From a virus: a stretch of 64,000 nucleotides of DNA. The notes below the pieces were generated by a model. It searched no databases. It saw only the letters and a program-made list of their open reading frames with translations, and was not told the origin of the DNA. Positions 7,497 through 60,459 of the stretch are shown in pieces (the stretch's first letter is position 1; each line of letters begins with the position of its first letter). The stretch is taken from positions 1 through 64,000 of IMG/VR virus record IMGVR_UViG_3300045996_003284; one strand, given 5' to 3'. Position numbers and translations under genes: made by a program.

Positions 7497-7679
7497 ATGA
7501 TGCACGCCGCGCTGACCCCGAAAGCCATTATCATCGTCCTGCTGTTCGGTGGCTTTGTTTTGATTGACCGCAGTTGCTCAATGGAAGATCCGACCGTGAA
7601 GGTGGGTCAGGAGCGGCACAAGGCGGCCATGAAGGACCTTGGCAAGAACACCTATCACCACGTCCAAAGCCCGTATTAA
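7497..7679 (+). CDS. trbK: TrbK-like entry exclusion protein
   Basis: 60 aa, N-terminal hydrophobic segment, AAGGAG RBS, lies between trbJ and trbL; C-terminus mirrors the TrbJ C-terminus (H..AM..LG.N....V.SPY). Confidence 0.7.
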   Translation: MMHAALTPKAIIIVLLFGGFVLIDRSCSMEDPTVKVGQERHKAAMKDLGKNTYHHVQSPY

Positions 7680-7692
7680 TCAGGAGCAGACT

Positions 7693-20552: not shown

Positions 20553-21629
20553 TTAGGGAGGTGCGTTGCTGGAGAGCCAGACGCGCGGCGCGCTGTTGGT
20601 GTTGATCGCGGCCAGATTATGGTGGTTCAGCATGTTTCCAGAAATGTTCAGGTCGCTGGACGTGGCATCCGCTTCAATAGAGTGCTTGTGGCGCAAAGTG
20701 TTCCAGGACATGACCTGATTGCCCGTGATATTCCAGTTGGCCGACGCGATCAGCCGCAGGGCAGAATAGGTTCCGGTCGCGGCCTGACTGTTTGTATGGA
20801 TAAAATTGCCGTTGAACACGCACCAGTTTGACAAATTGGCGTAAATCCCTTCCTCCCGGCTTTCCTCGAACCGGTTGCCGATGATTCTGAGCATATCGGA
20901 GTTTTCAAGCCTCAGAGCGTACCGGTTATTCCAATGTTCGTTCCCGACATACTGCCCCGCGTGTGAATTGTGTAAGTAACATCCGGCCGTGGAATAGGGA
21001 CCGGTGCCGCCGCCGAAAGCATTGTTGACGATGACAGGGTCGTGTGCCCAAAACATGTACAATTGTTCCAGACCATTTTCAAGAAATAGGCACCGCGTGA
21101 CGCGATTGCCGGACTGAGGGATTGCCTCAGTGCCGCTGAATGCCAAGCCGTGCCCCCCAGCGTTGATCGCGAAAAAGCACCGATCGACATTGTTGGACCC
21201 ATTTATACCCCAAAAGATGACGCCACTGCCGGTGCCGCTGCCGTGCTGGAAGGCCAATTCCTCGATTGAGCAAAAGGTGGCATCGTAGAGTTCGAGGACC
21301 GCGCCGTTGCCGAAACGCCGGATGGTGGTGTTGGTACCGCCCTCGCCGATGAGCCGGATATTCGTGGCGTTGGGAATGGACAAAACAGAGGTTGTACGGT
21401 AGAGGCCCGCCGGGAAGAAAACTGTCTTCCAAGCGTTTTGGCTGAGTGCCGCCTGGATAGCCGCGGTATCATCTGCCACACCGTCCCCCACAGCCCCGTA
21501 CTGCCGCACGGAAACGGCGGACCGGCCTTCTACCGTATCAATAAGATTGTAGATATCCTCTCCGGATATCCCGCCAACCGCGTTGAGCGGCATATCCGCC
21601 TTAAGACTGGACACAAGCTTGGCAACCAT
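20553..21629 (-). CDS. Tailspike-like beta-helix protein (pectate lyase 3-type N-motif)
   Basis: VSVRQYGAVGDGVADDTAAIQAAL..TVFFPAGLY, many I.GN repeats. Confidence 0.85.
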   Translation of the reverse strand: MVAKLVSSLKADMPLNAVGGISGEDIYNLIDTVEGRSAVSVRQYGAVGDGVADDTAAIQAALSQNAWKTVFFPAGLYRTTSVLSIPNATNIRLIGEGGTNTTIRRFGNGAVLELYDATFCSIEELAFQHGSGTGSGVIFWGINGSNNVDRCFFAINAGGHGLAFSGTEAIPQSGNRVTRCLFLENGLEQLYMFWAHDPVIVNNAFGGGTGPYSTAGCYLHNSHAGQYVGNEHWNNRYALRLENSDMLRIIGNRFEESREEGIYANLSNWCVFNGNFIHTNSQAATGTYSALRLIASANWNITGNQVMSWNTLRHKHSIEADATSSDLNISGNMLNHHNLAAINTNSAPRVWLSSNAPP

Positions 21630-21638
21630 AGCGACTCC

Positions 21639-22325
21639 TCAGCCCGACAGAACCGAACCGTAGAAATGATTGGTGAACTGGTTGGTGAAAAGGTTCGCGG
21701 GGGCGTTCGGATCGATGATCGTGACAATCCCGAGAGCGTTTCCGAGCGTGCATCCAGACGCCTGGATCAACTCAACCGCCAAATCCTCGCGCATCTCGGA
21801 CCGGGTGTCGCCGACCGTTGATAGGACGGCGGACTGTGTGCCGACCCCGGCTGCGAAGGTCAGAGTCTGCTGGAAGGCTGTGTAGTCCTCTGCGGGCGCG
21901 GCACTCAGCGCCACCGTCCGGATGGTGACGGAGCATGGTCCGCCGTTCGATTTCGTCACCGGAATCGCCAGTGTCTGACCCTCAATAACACTCAGCGCCT
22001 GCGGAATGCTGACAACTGGCAGCACCCCGCCACCCGATGTCGGCATATAGCCAAGATTGCTGGACACCTGGATAGCGTCGGCCTCGTCGAGCGGAGCACG
22101 CCAAGCCCGGATTTCCTGGATCAACAGGCTGGCCGGCTCAAGACCGGACGGAACGGTGGCACCGAAGCGCAGCACGGATACCGTGCCCGTGGTCAGGTCA
22201 TCCCCGGCCGCGGCTGATTGCTCGCTGACTTTCCCCCCGCCGGCGTACAGAGCCACCTTCACCCCGGCCTCCACCGTCAAGACGGCGGTCGTGATGATTC
22301 CGACCGGATCGTTCTGGAACGCCAC
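21639..22325 (-). CDS. C-terminal fragment of fibre protein (half LamG-like domain plus Calx-beta)
   Basis: LRFGA...LLIQEIRAW; SVIEGQTLAIPVTKS...SA.PAEDY..FQQTLTFAAG Calx-beta; completes the second repeat of the upstream gene. Confidence 0.65.
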   Translation of the reverse strand: MAFQNDPVGIITTAVLTVEAGVKVALYAGGGKVSEQSAAAGDDLTTGTVSVLRFGATVPSGLEPASLLIQEIRAWRAPLDEADAIQVSSNLGYMPTSGGGVLPVVSIPQALSVIEGQTLAIPVTKSNGGPCSVTIRTVALSAAPAEDYTAFQQTLTFAAGVGTQSAVLSTVGDTRSEMREDLAVELIQASGCTLGNALGIVTIIDPNAPANLFTNQFTNHFYGSVLSG

Positions 22326-22487: not shown

Positions 22488-25193
22488 TCAGGCTGGATCA
22501 TCGGCGGTCAGGACATCACCGTGTGAGAACACGCCGTTGACACCGCCTTCCGTATCCTTCGCCATCCAGATTCTCTGGACCGTTGGGGTGTCACGCAGCC
22601 GGATGAAGCGGATGCCAAGTGTGTAGTTGGCCTGTTGGTACCAGATCCCTGACGCCATCAGGATGTCGGCGGCACGGTGCGTCCGAGCAACGGCGCCGGT
22701 CACGAGGATGGGCGACGACATGTTGGCGGCCGGCTCAACCTGAAGATGGCAGAGATCGAAACCGTTGCTGGGATCGCCGGCCAGCGTTGTGAGCTGCGTG
22801 GAGTCGGTGACTGTCACCGTGACCTGGGGGGCAACGTTGGCGGTGATACTCTGCGTGCGGGTAAGAGCGACGCGGTACCAGCCGACCATGATGGGATCGT
22901 TCTCCACCGTCGCAGTGACCCCAGAATCGACGGCCAGAACGGTGCCAGCCCCAACCAGATCGACATGTGTGGCACGGACAATGTTGTCGATGCCCCGGAA
23001 GGTCAATCGCAACCAGCGGCGGTTGACGGGGCGGAGAATCACCGAAACGGTTACGGTTCCGGTCGGAATATCGCAGTTGGCCGAGGTCAGGGTCACCGAG
23101 ATGCGGTGTTCGGCAGTCGTTGCGGTCTCTCGGAAGCGGAGATAGCGAGTTCCGGTTGGCGATGAAGTGTTGGGATCGATGATCGGGAACTCGCCGGTAA
23201 ACTCACGGCTAAAGTCTTGGCTAAAGCCCTGAGCATCGGCGACATCATATTCGAAGTTGTACTCTTCTGTAAACTCGTGCACCGGCTCCGGAGAGACGTA
23301 TTCGGGACTGTACTCATCGCTGAACTCACGGACAGCGGTTTCCGCCACAGCGGAGGACAGTGCGAGGACGCCCGCGGAAGGAATCCAGCCCGGATCGAAG
23401 CTGTCGAACAACCTCTGCTCGGCTGCCGATGCTTCCATCAGGAGACCGGACACGCCGGGAGCCGTGTAGTGCCGACGGAAGCCGTTGGCCGGGATCGCCG
23501 TCCACATTCCAAACTCATTGCGCGACCAGGCGGTTGAGGATCGTGAAAGGCTGAGCCCGTCCGGCAGCGCGGTGGTCAGGACCAGGCGGGTCGAGGTGTC
23601 TAAGCTGGCGCTTTCGGTACTGAGCAACAGCACGTTACAGACACCGTTTCCGATGGTGACGCCCGCGCCAGCCTGGATCTCGATCCGGAAGGTCCGGTCG
23701 GAGATGACGCTGCGCGTGAGCAGGCCGACCGTGATGACGGCCGAACTCTGTCCAACCGCGAAGGTGACCGTTCCCTGAGATCCCACATAATCACGGGAAG
23801 CCAGGGCGGTGCCGTCAAGGGTGCGGTAGGTGACCGTGCCTCCGGTCGGCTTTCCAATCAGGACGACCAGCAGGCTGACGGTTGTCGCGGCGGGCAAAAC
23901 GGTCAGGTCAGGTTGAACGGTAGCCTCTGGAACGATTGCCGCGACACCCGTCTGTGACAAATCCACGGAGTAGGACTGGACCGCCGACAAAGCCAGTGCG
24001 GTGTTCCAAAATTTGAGGCGGCGCAACAGCATCGGCATGGCTCGGCTGCCGTCGCTGCGCGCGCCGATGCGGAACGTGGTGAAAGATGAGGCAGCCGTTC
24101 CGGTGCCGTCGCTGCCCAGGATGAAACCGTCCTGTGATAGCAGAAATCCGTTGGTAGCGTTGGTGAAGACGACCGTGCGCGCCGTGGTGGGCGGCGGTGC
24201 CGGACCGGACAGGTTGGTCGACACGGTGCCGCCGGTCGAGACGCTGTAGATGATGCTCGAGGCATCGTTGTCGATCTGGATGGAATCCGCGCCGGACAGA
24301 TGCAGCACAGTAGCGGAACCGGAGGCATACGGAATGTACTCGACTCCGAATGTCTTGTCGCCGGACGTGACCCAGTCCACTGAAGTGGTCAGGATATCAG
24401 CCGGGCGGATGACAGTGGATGTTCCGGTGTTGAGGATCGGCGAGGTAACCTCACTGCCAACTTCAGCGCCCGCGTAGGCCAACCAGAAGCCGCTGGTACC
24501 ATCGCCGCTGAAGGCCCGGTTGCCACCAGGATCGTAGACGTTCATTTGGAGCGCCGGAGCCGTGGTTCCGGTGCCGTAATCGTTGACCGCCGTTAGAGTG
24601 TAGAATCCATCGGTGTCACGCGTGATTGACGCGCCGGCCAGCCCGTTGCTGCTGATAACGGCGCCGTTGCCTTGAAGAAGAAAGCGGGCACTCGCGATGG
24701 CCCCGCTTTTGGCGGTCAGGAACAGGCCGATGCTGCTGTAGGTCCCAGTCGGCTTAAGAACGGCGGTGACCGCGATGGTAACTGCGTCCGGCAAGACTGC
24801 CGCGTGGCTGGCGTTGCCGAAGATGCAGTCCCATCCGTGAAACGCGTTGGTTGTGTTCGGGGTAATTCGGAGCGCGCCAGAACCAAACGGAGTCTGTACC
24901 GTGGAATCCTGCACCAAGGTGGCTTGAACCGACGTGAAGGTCGGCTGGCGGGTCCGAAAGATCAGTTGGGTGCGCGCCGGTTCGACGATCGTGTAAGGAC
25001 CGTTGAGCGTGATCGGATGGTACCAGGTCCGCGGCTGGTTGGCGGCGACGGCAACCCAGCGTCCGCTGTTGTTGCGGCCCAGAGCCACAGCATCCCGTTG
25101 CAGGGTGATGCCAGTCGGGACCGCGCCGCCGAACTCGAAAGTCCGGGATGCCGCCGGCAGGATCTCGTTCGTATCTTCTTGGAAGAACCACAT
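22488..25193 (-). CDS. Phage fibre protein with two spike-fibre/LamG-like repeats and Calx-beta; 3' end interrupted
   Basis: Duplicated unit (L.L.R...A..RN..G.W.A..AN..R ... Q/A.VE....SPIL.TG....R.ADIL); TVTYRTLDGTALASRDY Calx-beta. Confidence 0.75.
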   Translation of the reverse strand: MWFFQEDTNEILPAASRTFEFGGAVPTGITLQRDAVALGRNNSGRWVAVAANQPRTWYHPITLNGPYTIVEPARTQLIFRTRQPTFTSVQATLVQDSTVQTPFGSGALRITPNTTNAFHGWDCIFGNASHAAVLPDAVTIAVTAVLKPTGTYSSIGLFLTAKSGAIASARFLLQGNGAVISSNGLAGASITRDTDGFYTLTAVNDYGTGTTAPALQMNVYDPGGNRAFSGDGTSGFWLAYAGAEVGSEVTSPILNTGTSTVIRPADILTTSVDWVTSGDKTFGVEYIPYASGSATVLHLSGADSIQIDNDASSIIYSVSTGGTVSTNLSGPAPPPTTARTVVFTNATNGFLLSQDGFILGSDGTGTAASSFTTFRIGARSDGSRAMPMLLRRLKFWNTALALSAVQSYSVDLSQTGVAAIVPEATVQPDLTVLPAATTVSLLVVLIGKPTGGTVTYRTLDGTALASRDYVGSQGTVTFAVGQSSAVITVGLLTRSVISDRTFRIEIQAGAGVTIGNGVCNVLLLSTESASLDTSTRLVLTTALPDGLSLSRSSTAWSRNEFGMWTAIPANGFRRHYTAPGVSGLLMEASAAEQRLFDSFDPGWIPSAGVLALSSAVAETAVREFSDEYSPEYVSPEPVHEFTEEYNFEYDVADAQGFSQDFSREFTGEFPIIDPNTSSPTGTRYLRFRETATTAEHRISVTLTSANCDIPTGTVTVSVILRPVNRRWLRLTFRGIDNIVRATHVDLVGAGTVLAVDSGVTATVENDPIMVGWYRVALTRTQSITANVAPQVTVTVTDSTQLTTLAGDPSNGFDLCHLQVEPAANMSSPILVTGAVARTHRAADILMASGIWYQQANYTLGIRFIRLRDTPTVQRIWMAKDTEGGVNGVFSHGDVLTADDPA

Positions 25194-43978: not shown

Positions 43979-44332
43979 CTATTTTCGCAAGGTCAGATGC
44001 CAGTAAATACGCCGGTCGCCGCCAACTCTCACGACGGTCCAGGTGTCGGAGCCGTCGATGATCGTGTCGCCCTGCCGGGGTTCGAAGGACAGATCGCGGG
44101 CGCGAAGAATGCACATCTGGTCACCGGCCCGGATATCGGTACCGTTGATCAGGTTGACAGCGTATTCGACCAGGGCTGCTTTCAAGGTGGTTTCCGTCAC
44201 GGTGACGTTTTGGGGGGCCTCCGGATTGTAAGCGGCGCGCTCCATGCGGCGGTAGGTAACCGGACGGATCAGGTCACCGAGTAATATCCAGGCTTTGTCC
44301 AGACCGTTTTTAACAACCGTGAGCAAACTCAT
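43979..44332 (-). CDS. Head closure (stopper) protein
   Basis: INGTDIRAGD, P..GDTI.DG..TWTVV.V, YWHLTLRK. Confidence 0.8.
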   Translation of the reverse strand: MSLLTVVKNGLDKAWILLGDLIRPVTYRRMERAAYNPEAPQNVTVTETTLKAALVEYAVNLINGTDIRAGDQMCILRARDLSFEPRQGDTIIDGSDTWTVVRVGGDRRIYWHLTLRK

Positions 44333-44883
44333 CGGACAAGTCTCCCGGAGCCGTAGCCGTAGCGCGGCATGCCAAGACCGCGCAGTTTCATATAGACGGA
44401 GCGCGGCATCAGCAGCGGTGCCGTGGTGACCGATGAGGACGACCCGGACGACGACGAGGACCCGGCCATGGTAACGGCGATGGGACCAATCTCAACCTTG
44501 GACACATCACCGTCCGATGCTGAAACGACTTCGGTAACGCCGCTATCCCGCTGGCGGCGCAGGAACAGAGCCAGTTCTGCCGTCGCTTGGCGAGCGGCCA
44601 TGGGGATTTCGTTGCTCCGGATCATGCTTCGTCCGGAGCGGTCCGGCATGCCATAGCGTGGCAACTGGAGCGCCTGGGTGTAGCGCAGAACGACACCGTT
44701 GAATTCCCAGAAGTCATCGATGATCGACGTCGCCTGGATCAGGGCGGCCTGCTTATCTTCCAGGTCGAGGGAATCCCAGTCATCACGATCCATGCTGGAC
44801 GCAAAGTAGGAATCGGCCCAGGTGACCGAGACATAAGAGTTCGCCTCGGATAGACCCGAGCCGTCTTCCACGATAAAAGCCAC
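44329..44883 (-). CDS. Head-tail adaptor (often annotated DnaT-like ssDNA-binding)
   Basis: IVEDGSGLSEANSYVSV..AD.YF, K.AALIQAT..ID, QAL..PR, IP.....ATAELA. Confidence 0.85.
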   Translation of the reverse strand: MAFIVEDGSGLSEANSYVSVTWADSYFASSMDRDDWDSLDLEDKQAALIQATSIIDDFWEFNGVVLRYTQALQLPRYGMPDRSGRSMIRSNEIPMAARQATAELALFLRRQRDSGVTEVVSASDGDVSKVEIGPIAVTMAGSSSSSGSSSSVTTAPLLMPRSVYMKLRGLGMPRYGYGSGRLVR

Positions 44884-47900: not shown

Positions 47901-48110
47901 GTAGATCGTCTTGCGGCTGGGGTCAGCCGAAGCCATCTCAACGGCTTTGGATACCGTCAGGAAGGGTGCCCCCTGGGTGCCTGCGGCGCCGTCGCTGCCG
48001 TTGGTCGCAACGTACCAAGCGGTGACGTCGAGTGGGGTTTCCGGCTCAACCGGTGGCTCCACGGAGGTCCGACGGCGCGACCCCGTCGCGGTATGCATCA
48101 TCATGCTCAT
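44943..48110 (-). CDS. Right-handed beta-helix glycan-active protein fused to head-spike-fibre/LamG-like domain
   Basis: YVATNGSD...GT..APFLT, TIYVRGG, YPGETAVISGG, DTGAI, IYLDD.SS; C-terminal FSRPSGATYF..PRF..GLLLE..TNLL..TRAAD. Confidence 0.8.
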   Translation of the reverse strand: MSMMMHTATGSRRRTSVEPPVEPETPLDVTAWYVATNGSDGAAGTQGAPFLTVSKAVEMASADPSRKTIYVRGGTHRFTTHIDMAASSADLTIAGYPGETAVISGGERLTGFASEGSGLYSVSTTITSLDLAIGNKRQRVAQTGVLDPADPYHTGFLLADAVATPSTTQFRFRDTDVPAGLVQAGLMAQLPGMSPIDTNVINVTTLKPVSAIDYTSKTITLTAADTGAETVKTGSVYRLLNHASLIRNTREFGWRASDGKLVVKPESYNFQSLGVMVPRVQSLFQMDAGADNVTFSNLTFADVRWDGAAVYLSGAVGVRFGGCRFLNLGTGIHISSGNNTLIAGNTFEGTAGDALYIGTNVSGTTIYANTFRDVGEFGSGSALYCQDTSNTKVVYNDVYGAGQYAFSFKGAGTGHTAFTCSNNFITRTNRRAYDTGAIEFLNPDDVDLNATVSGNYISDAGGFGINASGTLLDPYRASCIYLDDLSSDVTVTKNFLRGATWGQVFIHGGDDNVIENNFHIIQPQDLYVSTLHDNGDLTGNVNPERNSFQKNIYYSTTARTGTLWNVDGLGADNVINNNIYFNLPLLSGYDADSQIADPLFADFGADSFVLQGTSPAFAKGIVDLEWSRMGTYGYTESAATTETLPRFWSSWADAPFLDLNYQTHVALYGVETFSRPSGATYFNNRGRLVEANGNQPRFNFNPATQEPLGLLLEDATTNLLANSSDLTSAAWVKNNTTASSGGGIGLDGANTLSVLTKTSEQGTVTQELETFPVNSFLTASVYLKKGTLDDWVYLNMGDRYAWFNLATGTTGTMIAGGTNIVSVATSMTSMGGGIYKCVFTVATTGITDSYLRIAGDVSDQGFWGTVGATVLLAGAQVEAKDHATSLVLTTTEPVTRAADTLYITSTEVPDLAFADAEGTVIADIALIQPVDSSAATIVSIDDGDASAATSDRVEISRTASGAFQTSIVTAGASQMSISGSSIPQNTDVRLTAAWKVNDAMASVNGAIIGTDTSVTVPTGLNRINLAARSAADSAVASGHYRRVRVYGKRITAFPT

Positions 48111-48529
48111 GCTGCGGTGTCACCGCCGAGCACGACCTGAGCGGCGGTGCCGCTGGCATTGGAAGCGACGAAAACATAAGCCTGGGCATATTGTCCGGCC
48201 GTCTTGCTGTGCCCACCGCGCGACAGCAGGGCACCGCTGGCGGCGACCGCGACCGTAACCTGTCCAGCCCCCATCTGGACGATTCCGCATTCCCATCCGT
48301 CCGGGAGGGAATTGGGAAGTGTCAGGGTGACGGCACCGGACGAGTTAAAGACGATCCGGCGCCGGTTGTCAGCGGCGGTGGCGGTGTAACTGGCGGTCTT
48401 GGTCAGGTTGGCCTGGATGGTCCGGTCTTCCAGGGTGTCGATCAGGTCGTGCAGGTCCTGCGCCGTGATCGCTCCGGACACGCCAATCGGCATGTTGGTC
48501 TTGAGGGTGGCGATCGTCTGGATGGTCAT
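48107..48529 (-). CDS. Fibre-associated structural protein
   Basis: GGAG RBS; LKTNMP..GAITAQDL.DLIDT N-domain; TASYT...D......FNS..AVTLTLP...G....IVQMGAGQVT...QYA...LGGD. Confidence 0.7.
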   Translation of the reverse strand: MTIQTIATLKTNMPIGVSGAITAQDLHDLIDTLEDRTIQANLTKTASYTATAADNRRRIVFNSSGAVTLTLPNSLPDGWECGIVQMGAGQVTVAVAASGALLSRGGHSKTAGQYAQAYVFVASNASGTAAQVVLGGDTAA

Positions 48530-48546
48530 GCGAAAGCTCCAGGCAT

Positions 48547-48570
48547 AAAAAACCTCCCAAAAGGCGGTCT
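48547..48570 (-). terminator. Probable intrinsic terminator
   Basis: ACCGCC-loop-GGAGGTTTTTTATG. Confidence 0.55.
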
Positions 48571-48609
48571 CAGGTGGCGAGAACCGAACAAGCGGAAGGA
48601 TGGACGCTC

Positions 48610-48798
48610 TTAGTCGACTCGGATATTGCCGAGATGCGTGATGCCCAAGACGCTGAACAGGAGCCACAGGACGACAAGAACGACCACGGCGATGTTCAGA
48701 ATTCGTTTGATCTTGGCGTCCATCGGCACGTAGGCATTGATGAGCCAGAGGACGACCCCCACCACGACAAGCGTGACAATGAGGCTGATAAGGTCCAT
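48610..48798 (-). CDS. Thivi_2564-like small two-TM membrane protein
   Basis: LISLIVTLVVVGVVLWLINAYVPMDAKIKRILNIAVVVLVVLWLL. Confidence 0.75.
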   Translation of the reverse strand: MDLISLIVTLVVVGVVLWLINAYVPMDAKIKRILNIAVVVLVVLWLLFSVLGITHLGNIRVD

Positions 48799-48844
48799 CG
48801 GGTTTCTCCATCACATAGGGGGCAGAAGGGGAAAGCACGTATTC

Positions 48845-49198
48845 TCAGGCCGGCGGGCGAATCAAGGCTTTCTTGACTGTGAAGGTGCCGGTATAGGCGG
48901 TTGCGACATCACCGGTCGCGTCGGTGATTTCAAGTTCATGATAGAAATTGCCCGACAGGTTGAGAGTATCCTCGGGGTCTAGCACGACCGTGACCGCGCC
49001 CCCGATCGCATCCGTGATTTCAAGACCCGCCTCTTCCGTCTTGGTCAAGAGCGGGGTACTCGAAAAACCAACAGTCTTGGCACGAGAGGCTTGCCACCGC
49101 GCTGTCGCGCCGGTGATATCAAAAACATCCCCGGTTGTTGCGTCGGTGATCGTGAAATTCAGCCTTTTCGTATCGCCCTGGTACATCTCGAAACTCAT
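48845..49198 (-). CDS. BppU-like adaptor/fibre attachment protein
   Basis: YQGDT..LNFTITD...FDITGAT, ITDA.GG.VTV.L.PEDT..L.G.FYHELEITD. Confidence 0.7.
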   Translation of the reverse strand: MSFEMYQGDTKRLNFTITDATTGDVFDITGATARWQASRAKTVGFSSTPLLTKTEEAGLEITDAIGGAVTVVLDPEDTLNLSGNFYHELEITDATGDVATAYTGTFTVKKALIRPPA

Positions 49199-51615
49199 GC
49201 AACCTCCACGCGAGCCGTCAGGCTGGTTGTTGGGGTGACCTCGCCTGTTAGGTCGACCTGGTATCGGACTGATCCAATCAGCGAGACCTGCTGCACAATG
49301 TCGGTCGCGCCATACACGATGTAGTTGCCCACGGCTGCCGTTGTGAGCATCGGCAGCATGATGACAACCGTAGCCTCACCGTCCGGAATCGTCCGGACCC
49401 CGGAGGCATCATGGTCGACAAGCCTGAGATGCGCAGCCGAAACCCCGGAGCGGATAGGGAGACTGCGGGATCCTTCTGCGTTGTGATTGGCCGCGCGCAA
49501 AAGGATTGCACTGGTGCCAAACAAATTAGGGGGGAGAGAAAGACCTGTCCCCATCCCAATAAGAGGCGCCATCGTAACGGCGACGGTCGCATCGATCGGC
49601 GGAACGCTCCGCGTGGCGGTGGCCACCGACTGGGCTTTCGGGAGTGCTGCGGCCGATTGCCCAAGCCGATCCGGGACCGTCCGTGATCCCGACGCCGCGG
49701 TTTGGCAAAGCGGGAGACGGGCCGACGCAGTACCGTTGATTCCGGGCGCGAAAACCTGCCCAGCGGAAGCGGTCGTCAGATGCGGGATTGCCGCAGCGCC
49801 GCTTCCTGTCCGTTGAGGAATCGTTCGGTCACCGGTCGCCGTTTCGACCATCTTTGGCAAGACACCGGCGACGACGCCCAACCGGTCGGGAATTTCCCGA
49901 ACACCCGTGGCTGACGCTTGTAGGGCGGCCAAACGCCCCTCAACGAGTCCATCCAGCCCGCCGATTCCACGCGCGCCGGTGGCGCTGTGACTGAGCGTGG
50001 GGGTCTGGGATTGGATCGTGCCGACAATATCCGGAAGCGTACGCGACCCGGCTGCAACGGTGCCAAGAGCTGACAGCCGCGCAGTCGACAAACCGCTGAT
50101 GCTGGGCAGAAATACCTGTCCCGCAGCAAGACTTGCCGGGAGCGAAAGCTCGGCTGCACCGGTTCCCATCCGATCCGGGATGGTCCGAGTGCCAGTTGCC
50201 GTCGTTGTCCCGATTTTTAGAGTGCTTGCAGCGGTACCCAGACGGTCTGGGATTGTCCGGCTGGCGGTTGCAACGGTTGTTAAATTGGAAAGACTCGCTG
50301 CTGACAGACCTGTCCGGTCCGGAATTGTGCGCGCGCCCGCAGCAACACTTGCCAAAAATGAAAGCTCGGCCGAACCGGTTCCCGTCCGTTCCGGAATCGT
50401 CCGGGCACCGGTTGCCACCGTCGTCCCAATTTGCAGAATGCTTGCGGCAGTCCCAAGGCGATCTGGGATTGTCCGGCTGGCGGCTGCTGCGGTGGCAAGC
50501 TTCGCAAGACTCGCCGCTGACAGACCTGTCCGGTCCGGAATCGTACGCGTGCCCTCAGCAACCGACGTTGTTTGGGCAAGGGACGCTGCCGACGAACCCG
50601 TTCGCTCGGGGAGGGTTCGAGTTCCGGCCGCAACCGACGTTGTTTGAGAGAGGGCTGTCGCCGATGAACCCGTTCGCTCTGGAAGGATCCGGGTGCCAGC
50701 CGCCGTCGACCGGATCGTCCCAAGAGTAGCACTGGAACTTCCGGTATAGCTTGGCGCTTCATATGCCCCAACAGCGGCGGTCGTGGCTTTGGGTAGGGTT
50801 CCGGCCGATGTGCCGGTAATCTCTGTGGTGGACGTATGAAGAGAATAAAGTTTGCGTTGCAGCGGTCTCAGAAATTGATACGGGGCTTTGTTGAGAGAGA
50901 TCTGCTCTTCGGCTGTAAGCGCACGGTTCCAGATCGCTGCGTAGTAACACGTTCCGTTTGTCCCATCCCCGTAAGCCACCACATTGCGATTCATCAAGAT
51001 GACGGTTTTGTCCGCACCAAAGAGAATCGGAGCGCTGTCAAACGTGTTCGATGTCGTTGATTTTGAGACACCGTTCAGACGGAGAGTCGCCGACGTATCC
51101 GACCGGGTTGCGATAAGATGCTGGGAACTCGCCGTGGGAAATGAGCCATTTTCAAAAATCGCGGCTCTCGGATTGTTCGCCACGCCATAAGCATATTGCA
51201 GAGAAATTCGGGTGGTCGAACTATCCCGAGTCAGTGAGATAGGCTGATAGGGGATCGCATGTTCGGTACTGTAATAGGGAAGATGAACAAGACGGCCGTT
51301 GCTCGCTGACGACCGGATATCGACGAGGGTAGAAACCGTAAACGCGGTCGTAATGGTACCAACGGTTTGAGCGCTGTAACCATAAGCGACGCCGACCGAA
51401 ATCGTGGAAATGGAGTTGAATCCAACTCCACTGGGGCCGGCGGCTATCTGAGCGGCGTTGATATAAGTTGGCAGGGAACGATTGACGAGTTCTGGGGCTC
51501 CTCTCTGTCCGGGGAGGGCATAGAACACCAACCCGCGCGTCAGCGGATGAGACCAGTCGATCTCGACCGGGCCGGTTGGCTGCTGAAGCCAGCGGGTTGG
51601 AAAGATCAGGGCCAT
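49195..51615 (-). CDS. LamG-like head domain plus long Ala/Thr/Gly repeat fibre
   Basis: P.RW.QQPTGPVEIDWSHPL.RGL, IWNRALTAEEQ..L...PYQ; many ~24-aa RT(I/L)P(D/E)R.G repeats. Confidence 0.75.
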   Translation of the reverse strand: MALIFPTRWLQQPTGPVEIDWSHPLTRGLVFYALPGQRGAPELVNRSLPTYINAAQIAAGPSGVGFNSISTISVGVAYGYSAQTVGTITTAFTVSTLVDIRSSASNGRLVHLPYYSTEHAIPYQPISLTRDSSTTRISLQYAYGVANNPRAAIFENGSFPTASSQHLIATRSDTSATLRLNGVSKSTTSNTFDSAPILFGADKTVILMNRNVVAYGDGTNGTCYYAAIWNRALTAEEQISLNKAPYQFLRPLQRKLYSLHTSTTEITGTSAGTLPKATTAAVGAYEAPSYTGSSSATLGTIRSTAAGTRILPERTGSSATALSQTTSVAAGTRTLPERTGSSAASLAQTTSVAEGTRTIPDRTGLSAASLAKLATAAAASRTIPDRLGTAASILQIGTTVATGARTIPERTGTGSAELSFLASVAAGARTIPDRTGLSAASLSNLTTVATASRTIPDRLGTAASTLKIGTTTATGTRTIPDRMGTGAAELSLPASLAAGQVFLPSISGLSTARLSALGTVAAGSRTLPDIVGTIQSQTPTLSHSATGARGIGGLDGLVEGRLAALQASATGVREIPDRLGVVAGVLPKMVETATGDRTIPQRTGSGAAAIPHLTTASAGQVFAPGINGTASARLPLCQTAASGSRTVPDRLGQSAAALPKAQSVATATRSVPPIDATVAVTMAPLIGMGTGLSLPPNLFGTSAILLRAANHNAEGSRSLPIRSGVSAAHLRLVDHDASGVRTIPDGEATVVIMLPMLTTAAVGNYIVYGATDIVQQVSLIGSVRYQVDLTGEVTPTTSLTARVEVA
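49330..50720 (-). repeat. ~72-nt (24-aa) tandem repeat with a 3-unit higher-order duplication
   Basis: RTIPDRTGLSAASL / RTIPDRLGTAAS / RTIP(E/D)R.GTG.AELS block occurs twice. Confidence 0.8.
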
Positions 51616-53443: not shown

Positions 53444-55144
53444 TTAGCTTGTTGGGTAGCCGAGTTTCCTGACCGTCACGCCGATCTCGCGCTCGAAGAC
53501 CTGTCCGCGGTTGGTCGTGATGGTGCAGATCACGGTGTGCAGTTCGCCCGGTGGGTTCCAGTTGCTCTTGTCTTGGTCATCAGGATCGATGTAGAGCCAG
53601 ACCGTGACATTGCGGTCATCGTTGGTGCGGGCATAGAAGCGCAGACCGACCAGGGTTGCCAGGGCAGACGGCAGCAGTTTGATCGAACTGATGCTGGCGC
53701 CGACACCCGTCAGTTCCATGTCGCAGTTGATGGTGTAGGCTTTCAGTTCGCGCGGCCCCAGCGGCGCGGCCCAGTTGACGGTCTGTGCACCAGTACCGAA
53801 ATCGACCGTTCGCCAACTTGGCGCCAGGATGTGGGGCAGGCTGGGAATGTTCAGCGGATCGGCTGGAACGCCGATGGCACGCACCGTCAGGTCGGGCAAC
53901 CGGATGGCTGCGGCCCCCGGCATCAACTGTGGTTTTGGCGTGGAGACGACGGCGACAGTTGCCGAGGGAAGAGCGATCTGCACGTCGCTGCTGCGAAGGG
54001 GCGGGAACGGTTGGGCTTCGGTCGCAAAAATTGGGGACGGCAGAAGAATCGAAACCGCAAGGTTCTGTAGGGGGAGACCGGTATCCGCGGTTACGCTGAT
54101 GGTGGGGCTTCCCAGCGTAGCCTGGATGTCCCCGTTGTTGCCAATGGGGCGGGCAATTGCTTGAACGGCAACGCGGGGTTGGACGACAAGACTGACGTCT
54201 GCCGTAACCGTCGGCGCGATGTCAAATTCTGTACTAAACTCGTAGCTGAATTCCATGCCGAATTCAGACTCATCCGGTTGGGCCGAATTTGCCTGAACGG
54301 TTGGAACGGGAAGAGCAAGGCCGATGGTGCCTATAGGGTGGGGGGGAACACTCAGAAGCGGCAGATAGTAGGTTGACGGGGGGAGCGGCGTTTCGAGAAA
54401 ATCATAGGGAGCGTCAGTGATCAGGCGTTGTTCTGCGTCCGATAACGCCCGATTCCAGATGTAGCAGTACAGGATGCCGCCGCCGGTGCCGCTGCCGGTG
54501 ATGGTGTCCGACCGGTTCATATAGACGACCGACGTCGCGGTACCGTATCCGACCACACTCGACGCGGTGAAGTAGTTGGTTCCGATGATGTCGAGCTGGA
54601 CGTTGTTGCGGCGCAGGGTGGCGGTGGCTCCCTTGCGGGTGGCGACGTAGGACGAGGTGGTGCCAGAGAACACCGCCGACTCAAACGAGCAGTTTTCCGG
54701 GCTCCCCGTGGCTGTGCCGATCTCCAGCATGGCGAGGGTCTGGTTCGTGACCCGCCGCAAGGCCATGACAACCGCCGGCGCGGTGAAAGATGAGTTGTTC
54801 TTCGGCACCGAGATGATGCGGGACGAATCGCCGAGCGTTTCCGCGACGAATTCGCAGGCGATTGTAAACTCGTTGCCGATGGTCCGGAAGGTGTCTGTGT
54901 TATAGGGCGTCCACCAACCGTTTCCAGTCGTTGACGGTGACCAGAATCCGACGCCGTTGGTAAAGGTCTTCATCTCGGACGTGCCGAGCGGATGCGAGCG
55001 CAGTCCGCCGATCAGGTCCGGATTGCCGTGCGCACCGCCCACCGTGCCGAACACCAGACCGCGCGCCAGCGGGTGGTTCTGATTCAGGATGGTCGGACCG
55101 GACGGCTGACGGCGCCAGCGTCCAGGAATGAGCAGGAACGCCAT
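53444..55144 (-). CDS. LamG-like domain protein with C-terminal adaptor domain
   Basis: PGRWRRQPSGP....HPLARGL, IWNRALSDAEQ..PY; C-domain homologous to 56083-56556. Confidence 0.75.
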   Translation of the reverse strand: MAFLLIPGRWRRQPSGPTILNQNHPLARGLVFGTVGGAHGNPDLIGGLRSHPLGTSEMKTFTNGVGFWSPSTTGNGWWTPYNTDTFRTIGNEFTIACEFVAETLGDSSRIISVPKNNSSFTAPAVVMALRRVTNQTLAMLEIGTATGSPENCSFESAVFSGTTSSYVATRKGATATLRRNNVQLDIIGTNYFTASSVVGYGTATSVVYMNRSDTITGSGTGGGILYCYIWNRALSDAEQRLITDAPYDFLETPLPPSTYYLPLLSVPPHPIGTIGLALPVPTVQANSAQPDESEFGMEFSYEFSTEFDIAPTVTADVSLVVQPRVAVQAIARPIGNNGDIQATLGSPTISVTADTGLPLQNLAVSILLPSPIFATEAQPFPPLRSSDVQIALPSATVAVVSTPKPQLMPGAAAIRLPDLTVRAIGVPADPLNIPSLPHILAPSWRTVDFGTGAQTVNWAAPLGPRELKAYTINCDMELTGVGASISSIKLLPSALATLVGLRFYARTNDDRNVTVWLYIDPDDQDKSNWNPPGELHTVICTITTNRGQVFEREIGVTVRKLGYPTS

Positions 55145-56082: not shown

Positions 56083-56556
56083 TCAGAGGGATTGGCCCAG
56101 TCGGCGGATGGGCAAGCCGATGGTGCGCTCGAAGATTTGGCCGTCCATGGCGTTGACCGTGCAGAGCAGGGTGTGGATTTCGCCAGGGGGCTCCCATCCC
56201 GGATGGTTGCGTTCATCTTCGTCGATCTGGAACCAGACCGTGATGTTGGTCATGTCGTTGGTGATGCCGTAGATCCGCAAACCGGCAGCGACGGCGAGCG
56301 GCAACAGGACGAGGCTGACCGAGGCGATCCGGTTGGAGATCCCGTCCATTTCGACGGAGCAGTCAATGGTGTAGTTCTTCAATTCGTTGGGGTCGAGCGG
56401 GTTGGTCCAGGTCACTGTGCCGGTGCCGTTGCCGAAGTTGACGGTCCGCCAACTTGGCGCCAAGGCATGGCTGATGGCTCCTATATCACCATCGAGCAGC
56501 AGTTTGCCGTTTCCCACCAGCAACAGGTAACTGCCGTTTGCAAGAACTAAGGCCAC
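56083..56556 (-). CDS. Fibre adaptor-like protein
   Basis: LDPNELKNYTIDCS, C.V....GQIFERTI.L.IR; GTG start. Confidence 0.65.
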   Translation of the reverse strand: MALVLANGSYLLLVGNGKLLLDGDIGAISHALAPSWRTVNFGNGTGTVTWTNPLDPNELKNYTIDCSVEMDGISNRIASVSLVLLPLAVAAGLRIYGITNDMTNITVWFQIDEDERNHPGWEPPGEIHTLLCTVNAMDGQIFERTIGLPIRRLGQSL

Positions 56557-56641
56557 GGCGAATCCCCCGTGTCGAACAAAAAGTGTAAACGGCAACCGTT
56601 AGAAGATCGGTGAACGCTCCTCAGTCTGATTTAGGGTGCGA

Positions 56642-59218
56642 TCAAGAACTAGTCGGCGGGTCGGAGGAAACCGGCCCCGTCTCGACGAGGTCAATACCGG
56701 GCACGTAGGTCAACCCAACCTTTGCCGCTGGCACGAAATCACCATCGGGGGGCGAACCCTCGCAGACAAAGCCTTCCCAGTCGCGCGCGGGGTCATTCAA
56801 CAAAGGCCAGCCGGCGGTGGGCTGGTCGCTGTTGAAAGGGTCGGGCGCGCGGACAGCGGCGAACACAGGGCCGAAATCCGGGTTGGTGCCGGCGCGACTG
56901 TTGGGCCAGACTCCATGGGCTTCGATCTTCTGCGTTGAACTGACGCTACCCCACACGTTATCGAGATCAATGGGATACCCATTGGCCTCAAAATCAGCGG
57001 CCTTGTTCAGGAAGTGATAGAAAGCGAACGCGCTGCCGGGGTCAGTTCGAACAACATTGATGTTGCGCAGCAGAAGCCCTGTCATGCCACCGTTGATTTC
57101 GGCCGGAACGTAGAAGCCCCGCGTGCCGATACCAACGCTACCGGTCAAATTGTGAATCCGCACTGACCCGGCACGTCCCGTGCCGGCGGTGCCGGTTGAG
57201 AAGATGGTTCCCCGGATACCTTTGTCCGATCCCGTCACGTTGACCAAGCGGCAGTTCTGCAGGGTGATATCAGTTTTGGCCGAACCCGCGTGGACGAGAA
57301 CGGCATGACCCTGGGAAATCGACGCGTTGTCAACCAGAACCCCTTCGAGATAGACCGCGCCGCAGTCTCGAAAATAGAGACTGGCATCGCCGGAAGACGC
57401 CACCGCCGACGGTTTGAAAGCGCCGCCGATCACCGTAACCGACGCGGCTCCATCGAAGAATAGACCCGCGTCCGTATCGACACTGGCCTTTGGGATGACG
57501 CGAATGTGTTTGCCAACGACATCGTCACCGGCAAAGGTTCGACGCGAGTCCTTGTCGAGATGGACTGTCCAGTCGAATGCTGTTCGCGCAGGCCAGGGGA
57601 GCGAAACCGGGTTATCGGGAACTTTAACGGTTGAGTCAACAATCGTAACAACACAGGTCTCGTTCGAAAGCGTGCAGTTGGTGGGGGATGACAGAACCAA
57701 ACGGACGGTTTCGTTTTTTTCGACCAAAGAGTCAGCCGTGGTCTGAAGGGTGACGGTTTGAGTTTCCTGATCTTTCGCGAACTTCAGCACCGTGGGCGGG
57801 ATCGCGGTAAAATCCCCTGGGGTAGCGGTGCCGGGGGACGTCGCGACCGTAACCGAGCAGGCGCCAGTTCCCGATTTGGTCACTGTTATGGTTGTCGAAT
57901 CGCCTTCGGTTACTGTGACGCTATCCGGCAGATAGACCAGGGGGTCTGCTTCAGACTGAACGCCATCCGCCGTCCATGTGGTGTTGCACCCAACGCGCTG
58001 GGCGGCAATGGTGCGGTTTGCCGCCCCACCCAAGGCTTTGTTGCCAGGATAATCCGAAACGGGTAAATTCCCACTGTTGGCATCAGGACCACTGGTTGGC
58101 GCAACTAAGCCAACGGGGGGCTTTGACCAAGAAACCGCCCCTGCGGCGCAATGGTAGAACTTGTTTCTCTTGGCTGTTACACCGCGAACAGCGGACCCAC
58201 CAAGCGTTTCAAGACCCCACCGTTTGGATTCAAAAACCTGATTGTCGATAACTTGAATGCTCTTCGAAAGTTGATTTGCGTGGGTGCCAGTATTGCCAAC
58301 AATAAGAATTGCCGCATGCCTTGTGGTTTTATCATGTTCTTCTTTCAACACCTGAGTCAACTGGCCGCTACCGCCGGCCCGATAAACCGTATTGTTCTTA
58401 ACAAGAGTATCCTGATTGCCGGCTGACCACCAATTGGGCTCAGACGCGACCAAAATACCGGCGCGTTCGTTTCCGCCACCCTCGACGAAGTTGCCAAGAA
58501 CGGTGAGGCCCTTCGTTCCAATCCCAGTAATACCGCGCCCACCCCGGTTGCCACCAACATAGTTGTACCGGCTGACGCAGTCCTGGATAAAGTTGTAACC
58601 GTAGCCAACAAAGGCAGTGCAATCGTCCCCGCTTTGCCAAATATAGTTATACTCGACAATAGTATTGCGCGACGGGTAGGTTGAGCGGGATGTCGTGGTA
58701 TGAATCGAATCGGCGACCGTGTACATGATCGTATTTCGGGCAATATACCCATTGGTAGAGCCCTGAACAAAGATGCCACCGATGTTCTTTAAGCTATTCT
58801 TCTTGTTGTCGCCCTCAATCCAGATGTGCGTGATCCGAAAATTGCGTGTTCCGTAGCGAACGCGCACGCCCGACTTTTCTGGAGGGGCTCCACCATCGAT
58901 TTGCCGGGTCTGGGGCCAACTGTGCACGCGCATTTTCGTGAGTTCCGGACCAACGCCTTTCAATTCGATCGAGCGAGCGCGGCGGTCCGTCGCGTACAGC
59001 ATCGTCACCGGGCCATCCCCCGGCTTGCCATTGACTCCGGAAACCTTGATGCTGTCGATCGTGAGAACGGAGCTATGGTTATAGGTCCCGGCCGGAATCA
59101 GGACGCTATGCCCACCCGCCTTGGCCGCGTTGAAGCAGGCTTGCAGGGCCTTCTGGTCGTCAGCCTTTCCGTCCCCCTTCGCATTCCAGGGAGCGTTTTT
59201 GGGATTCAGGACAGCCAT
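56642..59218 (-). CDS. Beta-helix glycoside hydrolase/lyase-like protein plus Calx-beta and second beta-helix
   Basis: AKGDGKADDQKALQACFNAA..VLIPAGTY, ADSIH, SGDD, GRGIT; VTVTEGD...TSPGTAT.GDF..LKFAKDQ..D..VE.NET Calx-beta; AGGAG RBS. Confidence 0.85.
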   Translation of the reverse strand: MAVLNPKNAPWNAKGDGKADDQKALQACFNAAKAGGHSVLIPAGTYNHSSVLTIDSIKVSGVNGKPGDGPVTMLYATDRRARSIELKGVGPELTKMRVHSWPQTRQIDGGAPPEKSGVRVRYGTRNFRITHIWIEGDNKKNSLKNIGGIFVQGSTNGYIARNTIMYTVADSIHTTTSRSTYPSRNTIVEYNYIWQSGDDCTAFVGYGYNFIQDCVSRYNYVGGNRGGRGITGIGTKGLTVLGNFVEGGGNERAGILVASEPNWWSAGNQDTLVKNNTVYRAGGSGQLTQVLKEEHDKTTRHAAILIVGNTGTHANQLSKSIQVIDNQVFESKRWGLETLGGSAVRGVTAKRNKFYHCAAGAVSWSKPPVGLVAPTSGPDANSGNLPVSDYPGNKALGGAANRTIAAQRVGCNTTWTADGVQSEADPLVYLPDSVTVTEGDSTTITVTKSGTGACSVTVATSPGTATPGDFTAIPPTVLKFAKDQETQTVTLQTTADSLVEKNETVRLVLSSPTNCTLSNETCVVTIVDSTVKVPDNPVSLPWPARTAFDWTVHLDKDSRRTFAGDDVVGKHIRVIPKASVDTDAGLFFDGAASVTVIGGAFKPSAVASSGDASLYFRDCGAVYLEGVLVDNASISQGHAVLVHAGSAKTDITLQNCRLVNVTGSDKGIRGTIFSTGTAGTGRAGSVRIHNLTGSVGIGTRGFYVPAEINGGMTGLLLRNINVVRTDPGSAFAFYHFLNKAADFEANGYPIDLDNVWGSVSSTQKIEAHGVWPNSRAGTNPDFGPVFAAVRAPDPFNSDQPTAGWPLLNDPARDWEGFVCEGSPPDGDFVPAAKVGLTYVPGIDLVETGPVSSDPPTSS

Positions 59219-59316: not shown

Positions 59317-60330
59317 TTAAACAACCCACCAGTCGCCCAGTCCAACCGCATTGACGTCCAGGATATGGAGCACATGACCATCGTTGTCGGTGCTGGTATA
59401 GGTCGTGATGCCGTCATGCTCGACGGCTGTCGTCGTCATCTGTCCTTCGCCGCCCCGGAACGACAGAGTGTCGATACCGTCCCCTGGGCCGTCGGTGATG
59501 GAATCGAAGTCCGTGATGACGTCGTGACCCATCGGCAATTCGTTTGGATGATTCGGGTCGAACGCGAGGAAGTCGAAGACGAAGTCGTTGCCCCCACCCG
59601 AGTCACCGCCACCGGTGAAGGTCTCACTGCCCTTCCCGGCGATAAACATATCATCCGGCGAGCTGCCGATCACGGTGTTATCGCTGTCGCCGCCGTGATA
59701 GATGAGAGAAACCGGTTCGCTGCTGCCCTCAGTCGTGATCACGTTGGTGCCGGTGAAGACGAGCCTGACCTCGGACTCCCCCGTATCAAAATTCTGGGTG
59801 GTGAGATGCCCCTTGCTTTCCCCGGTGATCCAGACCTCAGGGTTTCTGCCAATGTCAAAGGCCAGGGTGTCCCGGCCGGCATTGCCGTCGAACCGGCTGG
59901 TACCATAGTACACCTCGTCATGGATTCCGCCGATGAAGAAGGTGTCATCCCCAGTACCGCCGCGCGCGGTGTCCTTACCACCGTTGCCGAATAGGGAATC
60001 GTTTCCGGCTCCGCCGTTGAGAAAATCGTCGCCGCCGCTCCCGAGCAGGAAATCCTGGCCGGCATCGCCGTACAGCTTCAAGGGGCCGCCACTGTAAAGA
60101 CCCCAGAGCGTGTCGTCGCCGCGTCCGCCCCAGGCACTGTCACGCCCGCCCTCGGCGAGGTCGATGAAATCGTCACCGTCCTGCCCGTAGATCTTGTTGT
60201 TGCCGTCACTACCCTCAATGTGGTCGTCGCCGGCACCGCCATAGGCGTTTGACTTCCCCGACAAGTAGATATTATCGTCGGATTTGGTGCCGTGTACGGT
60301 AGCGTTTTTCTTGCCGTGGATGGTCGCCAT
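59317..60330 (-). CDS. RTX/hemolysin-type Ca2+-binding repeat protein
   Basis: Multiple GGxGxDxL nonapeptides (GGAGDDHIE, GGRGDDTLW, GGAGNDSLF, GGTGDDTFF); GHDVITDF; no signal peptide. Confidence 0.88.
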   Translation of the reverse strand: MATIHGKKNATVHGTKSDDNIYLSGKSNAYGGAGDDHIEGSDGNNKIYGQDGDDFIDLAEGGRDSAWGGRGDDTLWGLYSGGPLKLYGDAGQDFLLGSGGDDFLNGGAGNDSLFGNGGKDTARGGTGDDTFFIGGIHDEVYYGTSRFDGNAGRDTLAFDIGRNPEVWITGESKGHLTTQNFDTGESEVRLVFTGTNVITTEGSSEPVSLIYHGGDSDNTVIGSSPDDMFIAGKGSETFTGGGDSGGGNDFVFDFLAFDPNHPNELPMGHDVITDFDSITDGPGDGIDTLSFRGGEGQMTTTAVEHDGITTYTSTDNDGHVLHILDVNAVGLGDWWVV

Positions 60331-60459
60331 GGAGTCCCCCAAAAATCTTTATTGATTGGTGACAAGGGCGTTCATCTTACCGGATTGCGTCTAAAAAAGA
60401 ATTATACTGAACGGTGTTTATACGAAAGATAACATGACTTGTGTTGTTTCTGCACAGGT

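Follow-up and report, generated by a model that had tools for sequence, protein, structure and literature searches.

The DNA analysed here (the window) is a stretch of 64,000 nucleotides, positions 1 to 64,000 of a single virus record of 74,247 bp, IMG/VR IMGVR_UViG_3300045996_003284. The record has 60% GC and is without terminal overlap. Two blocks of genes dominate the window, a P-type mating-pair-formation operon and the late operon of a siphovirus, and each contains a gene whose product carries a right-handed beta-helix. One product, P0001, is a TrbJ-type conjugation protein with the helix as an N-terminal 'head'; the other, P0045, is a three-domain protein encoded among the phage structural genes. 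Judged by sequence, both helices belong, as separate members, to the same very large family of right-handed beta-helix glycoside hydrolases, which is distantly related to the alpha-1,3-glucanases of glycoside hydrolase family 87 (GH87). They share their fold, are homologous and have a conserved aspartate triad in common, but fall into separate clades and display no excess similarity to each other.

P0001 is a protein of 637 amino acids (aa) encoded at 5566-7479 on the plus strand. It is defined by translation and by an AlphaFold2 (AF2) model, and the Pfam assignments of its neighbours place it in the trbJ slot, with trbE (3065-5557) on one side and trbL (7639-9645) on the other, both also on the plus strand. 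The protein begins with a signal peptide, a hydrophobic leader that ends in SFA/A, and continues with the GH87-like beta-helix, a Gly/Pro linker and the TrbJ domain. Both the trbE-trbL position within a P-type trb operon and the signal peptide are those of TrbJ/VirB5 proteins. The beta-helix (residues 22-370; 5629-6675, plus strand) is modelled with a pLDDT mostly above 90 and matches Pfam Beta_helix at E 5.5e-28; the top Foldseek match is the GH87 structure 7c7d (E 5.4e-10). A predicted catalytic triad, located from alignment A2 (described below), consists of Asp177 (6094-6096) and Asp200-Asp201 (6163-6168), and thus spans 6094-6168 on the plus strand. The C-terminal, TrbJ/VirB5-like domain (residues 435-637; 6868-7479, plus strand) forms long helices in the AF2 model. 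Its NCBIfam TrbJ match (residues 438-624, E 1.4e-12) falls below the curated cutoffs, with 47.2 bits against 225 for NF010448 and 31.8 against 100.55 for TIGR02780. As the match covers positions 46-232 of a 246-position model, the C-terminus is taken to be a divergent TrbJ domain within a larger protein. A helix-TrbJ fusion with a head of the P0001 type was not found in PLSDB or in the searched GTDB species genomes; the best helix match in the genome-contig scans has 37% identity and comes from an Azospirillaceae metagenome-assembled genome. In the literature library searched, no paper mentions both 'TrbJ' and 'beta-helix'.

P0045 (858 aa) is encoded at 56642-59218 on the minus strand, with its ATG at 59218, and is defined by translation, by Pfam matches to Pect-lyase_RHGA_epim and Calx-beta, and by its AF2 model. 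It consists of a first beta-helix, a Calx-beta domain, a second beta-helix and a disordered C-terminus, and has no signal peptide. The gene lies between the genes for the major head protein and the head-tail adaptor Ad1 and is co-oriented with them, which places it in the virion structural operon. Beta-helix 1 (residues 1-400; 58019-59218, minus strand) is the homologue of the TrbJ helix; its pLDDT is mostly above 85, and its Foldseek matches include the GH87 structures 5zru, 6k0v and 7c7d. Alignment A3 gives its predicted triad as Asp170 (58709-58711) and Asp198-Asp199 (58622-58627), together 58622-58711 on the minus strand. The Calx-beta domain (about residues 425-530; 57629-57946, minus strand) is recognized by Pfam PF03160 (E 6.6e-08) and by Foldseek (3ead, CALX-CBD1, TMt 0.84). 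Beta-helix 2 (about residues 550-760; 56939-57571, minus strand), delimited by AF2 secondary structure and pLDDT and followed by about 95 disordered residues, has right-handed beta-helix proteins as its Atlas structure neighbours (TM 0.59-0.69). No particle-binding domain precedes the first helix, whose cap starts at residue 1, so that any virion anchor would have to be C-terminal.

P0045 has no PHROG match, and tblastn gave no match in 50,697 GenBank phage records; against plasmids, tblastn matched the Calx-beta and C-terminal parts and nothing else. Viral-contig scans with P0046 (a relative of P0045), P0001 and TrbE gave no matches, and a metagenome scan with alignment A4, which was keyed on generic motifs of the N-terminal cap, gave distant helices alone, with at most 29% identity over the domain.

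The homology of the two helices is clear. BLASTP aligns P0001 with P0045 over 316 residues at 33% identity and 12% gaps (E 4e-25), far beyond chance, and the pairwise alignment proposed in an earlier note on this DNA thereby identifies the pair as true homologues. A MAFFT alignment of the two helix domains has 36% identity and several loop insertions in P0045 relative to P0001. The same note, made from the letters and their translations, had drawn attention to seven collinear motif pairs, and six-frame translation locates all 14 motifs, at 5683-6357 (plus strand) on the TrbJ side and at 59149-58430 (minus strand) on the phage side. It was also right that the other two beta-helix genes lack these motifs: in an all-versus-all BLASTP of the large proteins of the contig, a helix-long match is seen for the P0001/P0045 pair alone. 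When the 74-kb record is searched with a profile of the pair, the two helices are the only places that match, apart from a weak match to 53 residues of N-terminal cap in a 358-aa protein at 20553-21629 (E 1.5e-4). At the DNA level, blastn detects nothing significant between the two coding regions (best E 0.17).

The shared motifs are a family-wide consensus and not a private signature of the pair. In a library clustered at 50% identity, the profile of the two helices matches 1709 clusters at E<=1e-3, 903 at <=1e-10 and 128 at <=1e-30. The motifs reappear in the consensus of 159 family members that lie outside the clades of both proteins (GIFV..S.NG.I.NNT..T.ADSIH, SGDDGIAVVSYG, N.WGRGI..VG and AGIYIASE), and at 74 of the 108 positions identical between the window domains the residue is the commonest one in the family. 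What the motifs represent is the predicted catalytic core that the family conserves, and not a trace of exchange within the element. The family is a promiscuous module, found fused variously to TrbJ, TrbL, RTX repeats, Calx-beta and a phage baseplate hub. The hub protein, P0029 (954 aa, on a 38,659-bp contig), combines Pfam Phage_phiJL001_Gp84_N and Phage_BR0599 with a family helix; this helix has 36% identity to the TrbJ helix and is slightly closer to it than P0045 is.

The link to GH87 covers a whole catalytic domain. Alignment A2, a 32-sequence profile of P0001 and 31 relatives, matches 7c7d at E 5.4e-20 (profile positions 12-363 to chain residues 207-565) and 5zru at E 1.3e-14. The sequence match is a property of this family profile, as 32 sequences are needed to reach GH87; A1, a profile of two sequences, gave a GH110 match alone among PDB sequences (E 3.9e-5). 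In the A2 alignment, 'ADS' lies over 'ADG' and 'GDD' over 'GDD' (5zru 'LADG' and 'GDDG'), and the spacing in P0001 is 23 residues, as from Asp1067 to Asp1090/1091. These three residues, Asp1067, Asp1090 and Asp1091, are needed for catalysis in the GH87 enzyme Agl-KA (PMC6814745). The Asp...Asp-Asp triad is invariant in A2, on the P0001 side, and in A3, on the P0045 side, distant family members included, and Asp170, Asp198 and Asp199 of P0045 share MAFFT alignment columns with Asp177, Asp200 and Asp201 of P0001. Foldseek likewise returns GH87 among the top matches for both models; alginate epimerases, RbmB, GH28, GH110 and phage tailspikes are also present.

Each of the two domains has relatives on other contigs that are much closer to it than is its co-resident. 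For the TrbJ helix, these are 17 other proteins (P0003-P0019, of which P0011 is encoded on a 54,999-bp contig) with 49-66% identity. At least eight of them align with P0001 over its full length, all four parts (signal peptide, helix, linker and helical C-terminal domain) included, although one of the eight is truncated C-terminally. For the phage helix, they are six other helix plus Calx-beta proteins (P0046-P0051; P0046, P0048 and P0050 are on one contig of 50,574 bp) with 46-65% identity; a seventh has 36% identity. The nearest relative of the TrbJ helix, at 65% identity, is P0007. This 832-aa protein, from a JGI contig of 46,456 bp, has a TrbL/VirB6 domain in place of TrbJ (Pfam TrbL, residues 497-705) and may be either a real fusion or a merge made in gene calling.

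The pair has no excess similarity when set against the rest of the family. Among the 159 outside representatives, 96 exceed the phage helix in identity to the TrbJ helix, and 25 exceed the TrbJ helix in identity to the phage helix. Identity across the two clades averages 30.9% (range 26.5-36.0), and the co-resident pair, at 32.3%, ranks 34th of 144 cross-clade pairs. By bit score, 13 of the 17 other members of the TrbJ clade match the phage helix better than P0001 does. RTX-linked members have 36-40% identity and 150-185 bits against the TrbJ helix, compared with 88-142 bits for members of the phage clade. Fourteen positions are fixed differently between the two clades.

Phylogenetic trees separate the two domains as well. 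Both clades are fully supported in FastTree (185 domains) and in IQ-TREE (61 domains) and are sisters in neither tree. They are at opposite ends of the 185-row FastTree, and in the careful IQ-TREE with a site-mixture model each has 100/100 support. There, a 99/91 branch unites the TrbJ clade with 34 other lineages, RTX-linked proteins and the phage baseplate hub among them, apart from an extended phage clade. A deep sister relation of the clades is thus not favoured by the trees. In a strict form of the approximately unbiased (AU) test, a grouping of the TrbJ clade with just the seven core phage rows was rejected (p 0.0005 and 0.019); this constraint is judged too strict, since it also separates the phage clade from its real outer relatives.

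These findings bear on the earlier note's central idea, that the resemblance is the best internal evidence for co-evolution or exchange in one element. In that case the helix would have been copied or exchanged between the type IV secretion system (T4SS) and the phage genes, or would have co-evolved there, and the pair would be each other's special relatives. Both genes are indeed on one 74-kb contig and keep the same core motifs, and the two blocks are alike in composition (GC 0.587 versus 0.607, tetranucleotide r 0.95-0.97). However, like composition is expected for any two elements that share a host lineage. Each protein belongs to a 100/100 clade of sequences from other contigs with 46-66% identity, and is closer to these outside proteins (49-66% and 46-65%) than to the other member of the pair (~33%). 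The rank of the pair, the better scores of most TrbJ-clade members against the phage helix, the lack of DNA similarity and the rejection of a group of TrbJ and core phage sequences alone point the same way, and the sister placement that the note had named as support for exchange was not obtained, the 99/91 branch of the best tree keeping the clades apart. The idea therefore fails, and exchange within the element is considered extremely improbable. What stands of the proposal that pilus and phage protein carry the same module is that both have a domain of one beta-helix family with a predicted catalytic triad; that they are special relatives does not stand.

The interpretation regarded as quite probable is that a GH87-like glycanase module was recruited on two independent occasions, once for mating contact and once for phage adsorption. 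A few results weigh against it. The Pfam model CatAgl_D2 (PF22816) matches the family members P0053, P0054 and P0088 but neither P0001 nor P0045 at E<=0.01, and the two window proteins are for this reason filed as GH87-like and not as GH87 proper. In a fair AU test, which joins the TrbJ clade to the 13-row extended phage clade, the constraint costs 19.9 log-likelihood units on the careful tree (p 0.13). On quick trees the same constraint has p 0.0525 (LG+G4) and 0.51 (site-mixture) with 61 rows, and 0.85 (LG+G4) with 185 rows, although the last comparison says little because the free search scored poorer than the constrained one. Finally, the sample for the trees was picked with a profile of the two domains and is not neutral.

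The tree tests leave some room for an ancient transfer of the module, whether from a phage appendage gene to a trbJ gene or the reverse, with the clades as deep sisters. The fair AU tests do not reject that grouping, and the family occurs in other phage tail proteins, such as the baseplate hub. Set against this are the 99/91 branch of the careful tree, the positions at opposite ends of the large FastTree, the long stems of both clades, which may attract each other, and the RTX-linked members, which score higher against the TrbJ helix than any member of the phage clade. Such a transfer is considered unlikely; if it did occur, it would be older than the radiation of both clades and uninformative about this element. 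Still less probable is the combined case of one old transfer between phage and conjugation system in the same host lineage with both helices still cutting the same host exopolysaccharide, by which adsorption and mating-pair formation would share one receptor-clearing chemistry.

The failure of the Pfam GH87 model also leads to the question of whether one or both domains might be non-catalytic, as glycan-binding or adhesin modules similar to the beta-helix adhesin PfbA, whose structures (3zpp and 4mr0) are among the Foldseek matches. The sequence match to PfbA, however, is mainly to the N-terminal cap (profile residues 9-60), and the Asp...Asp-Asp triad, aligned with the catalytic residues of GH87, does not vary in either clade or in distant members. 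An adhesin role is accordingly held to be improbable.

Independent recruitment of the module is compatible with what is seen in relatives of each gene block. On the conjugation side, plasmid pSR-1 of Skermanella rosea has in its trbJ slot a gene for a 641-aa protein annotated as hypothetical (WP_203102814.1; NZ_CP086112.1 332873-334798; L168:3636-5561). In the product, a signal peptide is followed by a helix-like head that is very diverged, by a linker as in P0003-P0009 and by a TrbJ domain 55% identical to that of P0001. The head has no Pfam match and lacks the Asp-Asp pair, with 'QDG' at the 'DDG' of the family. A headed TrbJ, with another head, is therefore present on a cultured Azospirillaceae plasmid. 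The combination of a different head with the same TrbJ domain suggests that the headed TrbJ is a trait of an Azospirillaceae-type T4SS lineage and that heads are exchangeable.

On the phage side, six IMG/VR fragments of kin phages (L088-L093) encode a capsid protein 70-74% identical to that of the present record and have a post-capsid appendage locus in common with it. Their blocks contain small adaptor-like proteins, an SASA esterase protein and a 996-aa protein; L089 also encodes a 1055-aa helix/head-spike-fibre protein. Sharing of the post-capsid block indicates that phages of this group conserve an appendage locus at this position, between the capsid and neck genes, with content that varies. 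Neither the family helix nor TrbE was found in the available sequence of the six fragments, in a search whose positive control on the present record worked; as these records are just 24-60% complete, the absence is weak evidence. It fits P0045 as variable cargo of the appendage locus.

The P-type operon runs from position 1 to ~13.8 kb on the plus strand. Pfam identifies, besides the trbJ-slot gene, the C-terminal part of TraG, TrbB, TrbE, TrbL, TrbF/VirB8, TrbG, TrbI and a TraF-type S26 peptidase. The siphovirus late operon extends from ~17.4 kb to the contig end on the minus strand. It contains genes for a scaffold protein and the major head protein (contig 72.6-71.4 kb; capsid gene at contig 71432-72424, minus strand, phrog_247, E 4e-101), followed by ~26 kb that encode large carbohydrate-type proteins and by Ad1 (44329-44883, minus strand, phrog_477). 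Beyond Ad1 are genes for neck, tail terminator, major tail protein, tape measure, tail L, a J-like protein, fibres and endolysin. The left contig end cuts traG (1-930), whose reading frame is already open at base 1. On the right (contig 72576-74247), the sequence stops ~800 bases past the scaffold gene, short of any portal or terminase gene. CheckV estimates the 74-kb record as ~63% complete, and with both ends cut, the replication, relaxase, portal and terminase genes are expected to lie outside it.

Next to P0045, inside the structural operon, is a gene for an RTX protein of 341 aa (59317-60342, minus strand) with calcium-binding nonapeptide repeats (Pfam HemolysinCabind, E 7.9e-18); RTX repeats are also fused to many of the TrbJ helix's outside relatives. 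The Calx-beta domain of P0045 is 39% identical over 116 residues to a 228-aa protein at 21639-22325, which in turn has 28% identity over 163 residues to the Calx-beta region of a 901-aa tail-locus protein (22488-25193). Three small proteins of 243, 163 and 227 aa (48107-48838, contig 68593-69084 and contig 69165-69848) have a common C-terminal segment with 46-61% identity, and the N-terminus of the 358-aa tail helix protein weakly matches this segment (26-44%). The first ~260 residues of an 806-aa LamG protein (49195-51615) are 33% identical to those of a 566-aa protein (53444-55144), whose last 130 residues show 50% identity to a 170-aa open reading frame at 56083-56595.

With independent recruitment of the GH87-like module as the preferred interpretation, one helix would have become the N-terminal head of TrbJ, a VirB5-type pilus-tip protein, in the Azospirillaceae-type Trb conjugation lineage, and another would have become the catalytic domain at the N-terminus of a three-domain protein encoded in the variable appendage locus between capsid and neck genes. 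Each is predicted to be an inverting enzyme that uses three aspartates to cut a polysaccharide on the surface or in the matrix of the target cell. The TrbJ fusion would be exported by means of its signal peptide, be situated at the pilus tip in the manner of VirB5-type proteins and clear the path for mating contact. P0045 may be a virion appendage or an accessory phage enzyme that clears the path for adsorption. The earlier suggestion of a common target polysaccharide is not to be assumed: with 33% identity, loop insertions in P0045 and 14 clade-specific positions, there is little reason to expect the same substrate.

It follows that the homology is unusable as internal evidence that the conjugation and phage modules form one co-evolving element, and the question of a single replicon needs evidence of another kind. 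The gain is a defined GH87-like assignment with a conserved Asp triad for both proteins, which mutagenesis and enzyme assays can target directly. Of the two, the helix-headed TrbJ is of greater interest.

P0001 resembles the TrbJ/VirB5 minor pilins of P-type systems in its trbE-trbL slot, its signal peptide and a helical C-terminal domain that matches NCBIfam TrbJ, but has ~400 extra N-terminal residues, formed by the helix and linker. The pSR-1 protein WP_203102814.1 shares with it the operon slot, overall length and the layout of signal peptide, repeat-rich head, linker and TrbJ; the pSR-1 head, however, is different and very diverged, and does not keep the triad. P0045 has in common with phage tailspikes and depolymerases (Dettilon gp208, 6f7d; CBA120 TSP1-3; Sf6 tailspike) a beta-helix fold for glycan processing and an origin in a phage structural operon, with Foldseek E values of 1e-9 to 1e-5. 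It differs from them in having no N-terminal virion anchor and in the position of its gene, which is between capsid and neck genes and not after the tail genes.

The closest comparison is with GH87 itself (Agl-KA, 5zru; Agl-ST, 7c7d; Agl-FH1, 6k0m). The enzymes of this family resemble both window domains in the right-handed beta-helix, in a profile match over the whole domain, in the aligned Asp triad and in being top Foldseek matches. Identity in structural alignments is just 15-21%, however, and the window proteins are without the N-terminal galactose-binding-like domain of GH87. Their helices are fused to TrbJ or to Calx-beta and a second helix, and there is no reason to assume alpha-1,3-glucan as substrate. 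The A-modules of mannuronan C-5 epimerases (AlgE4, 2pyg; AlgE6, 5lw3) and the lyase RbmB (9ozl) are also similar to the window helices in fold and N-terminal cap (Foldseek E 2e-8 to 3e-7). The sequence match to these proteins is limited to the cap, whereas the predicted catalytic residues of the window helices align with those of GH87 and not with those of the epimerases or lyases.

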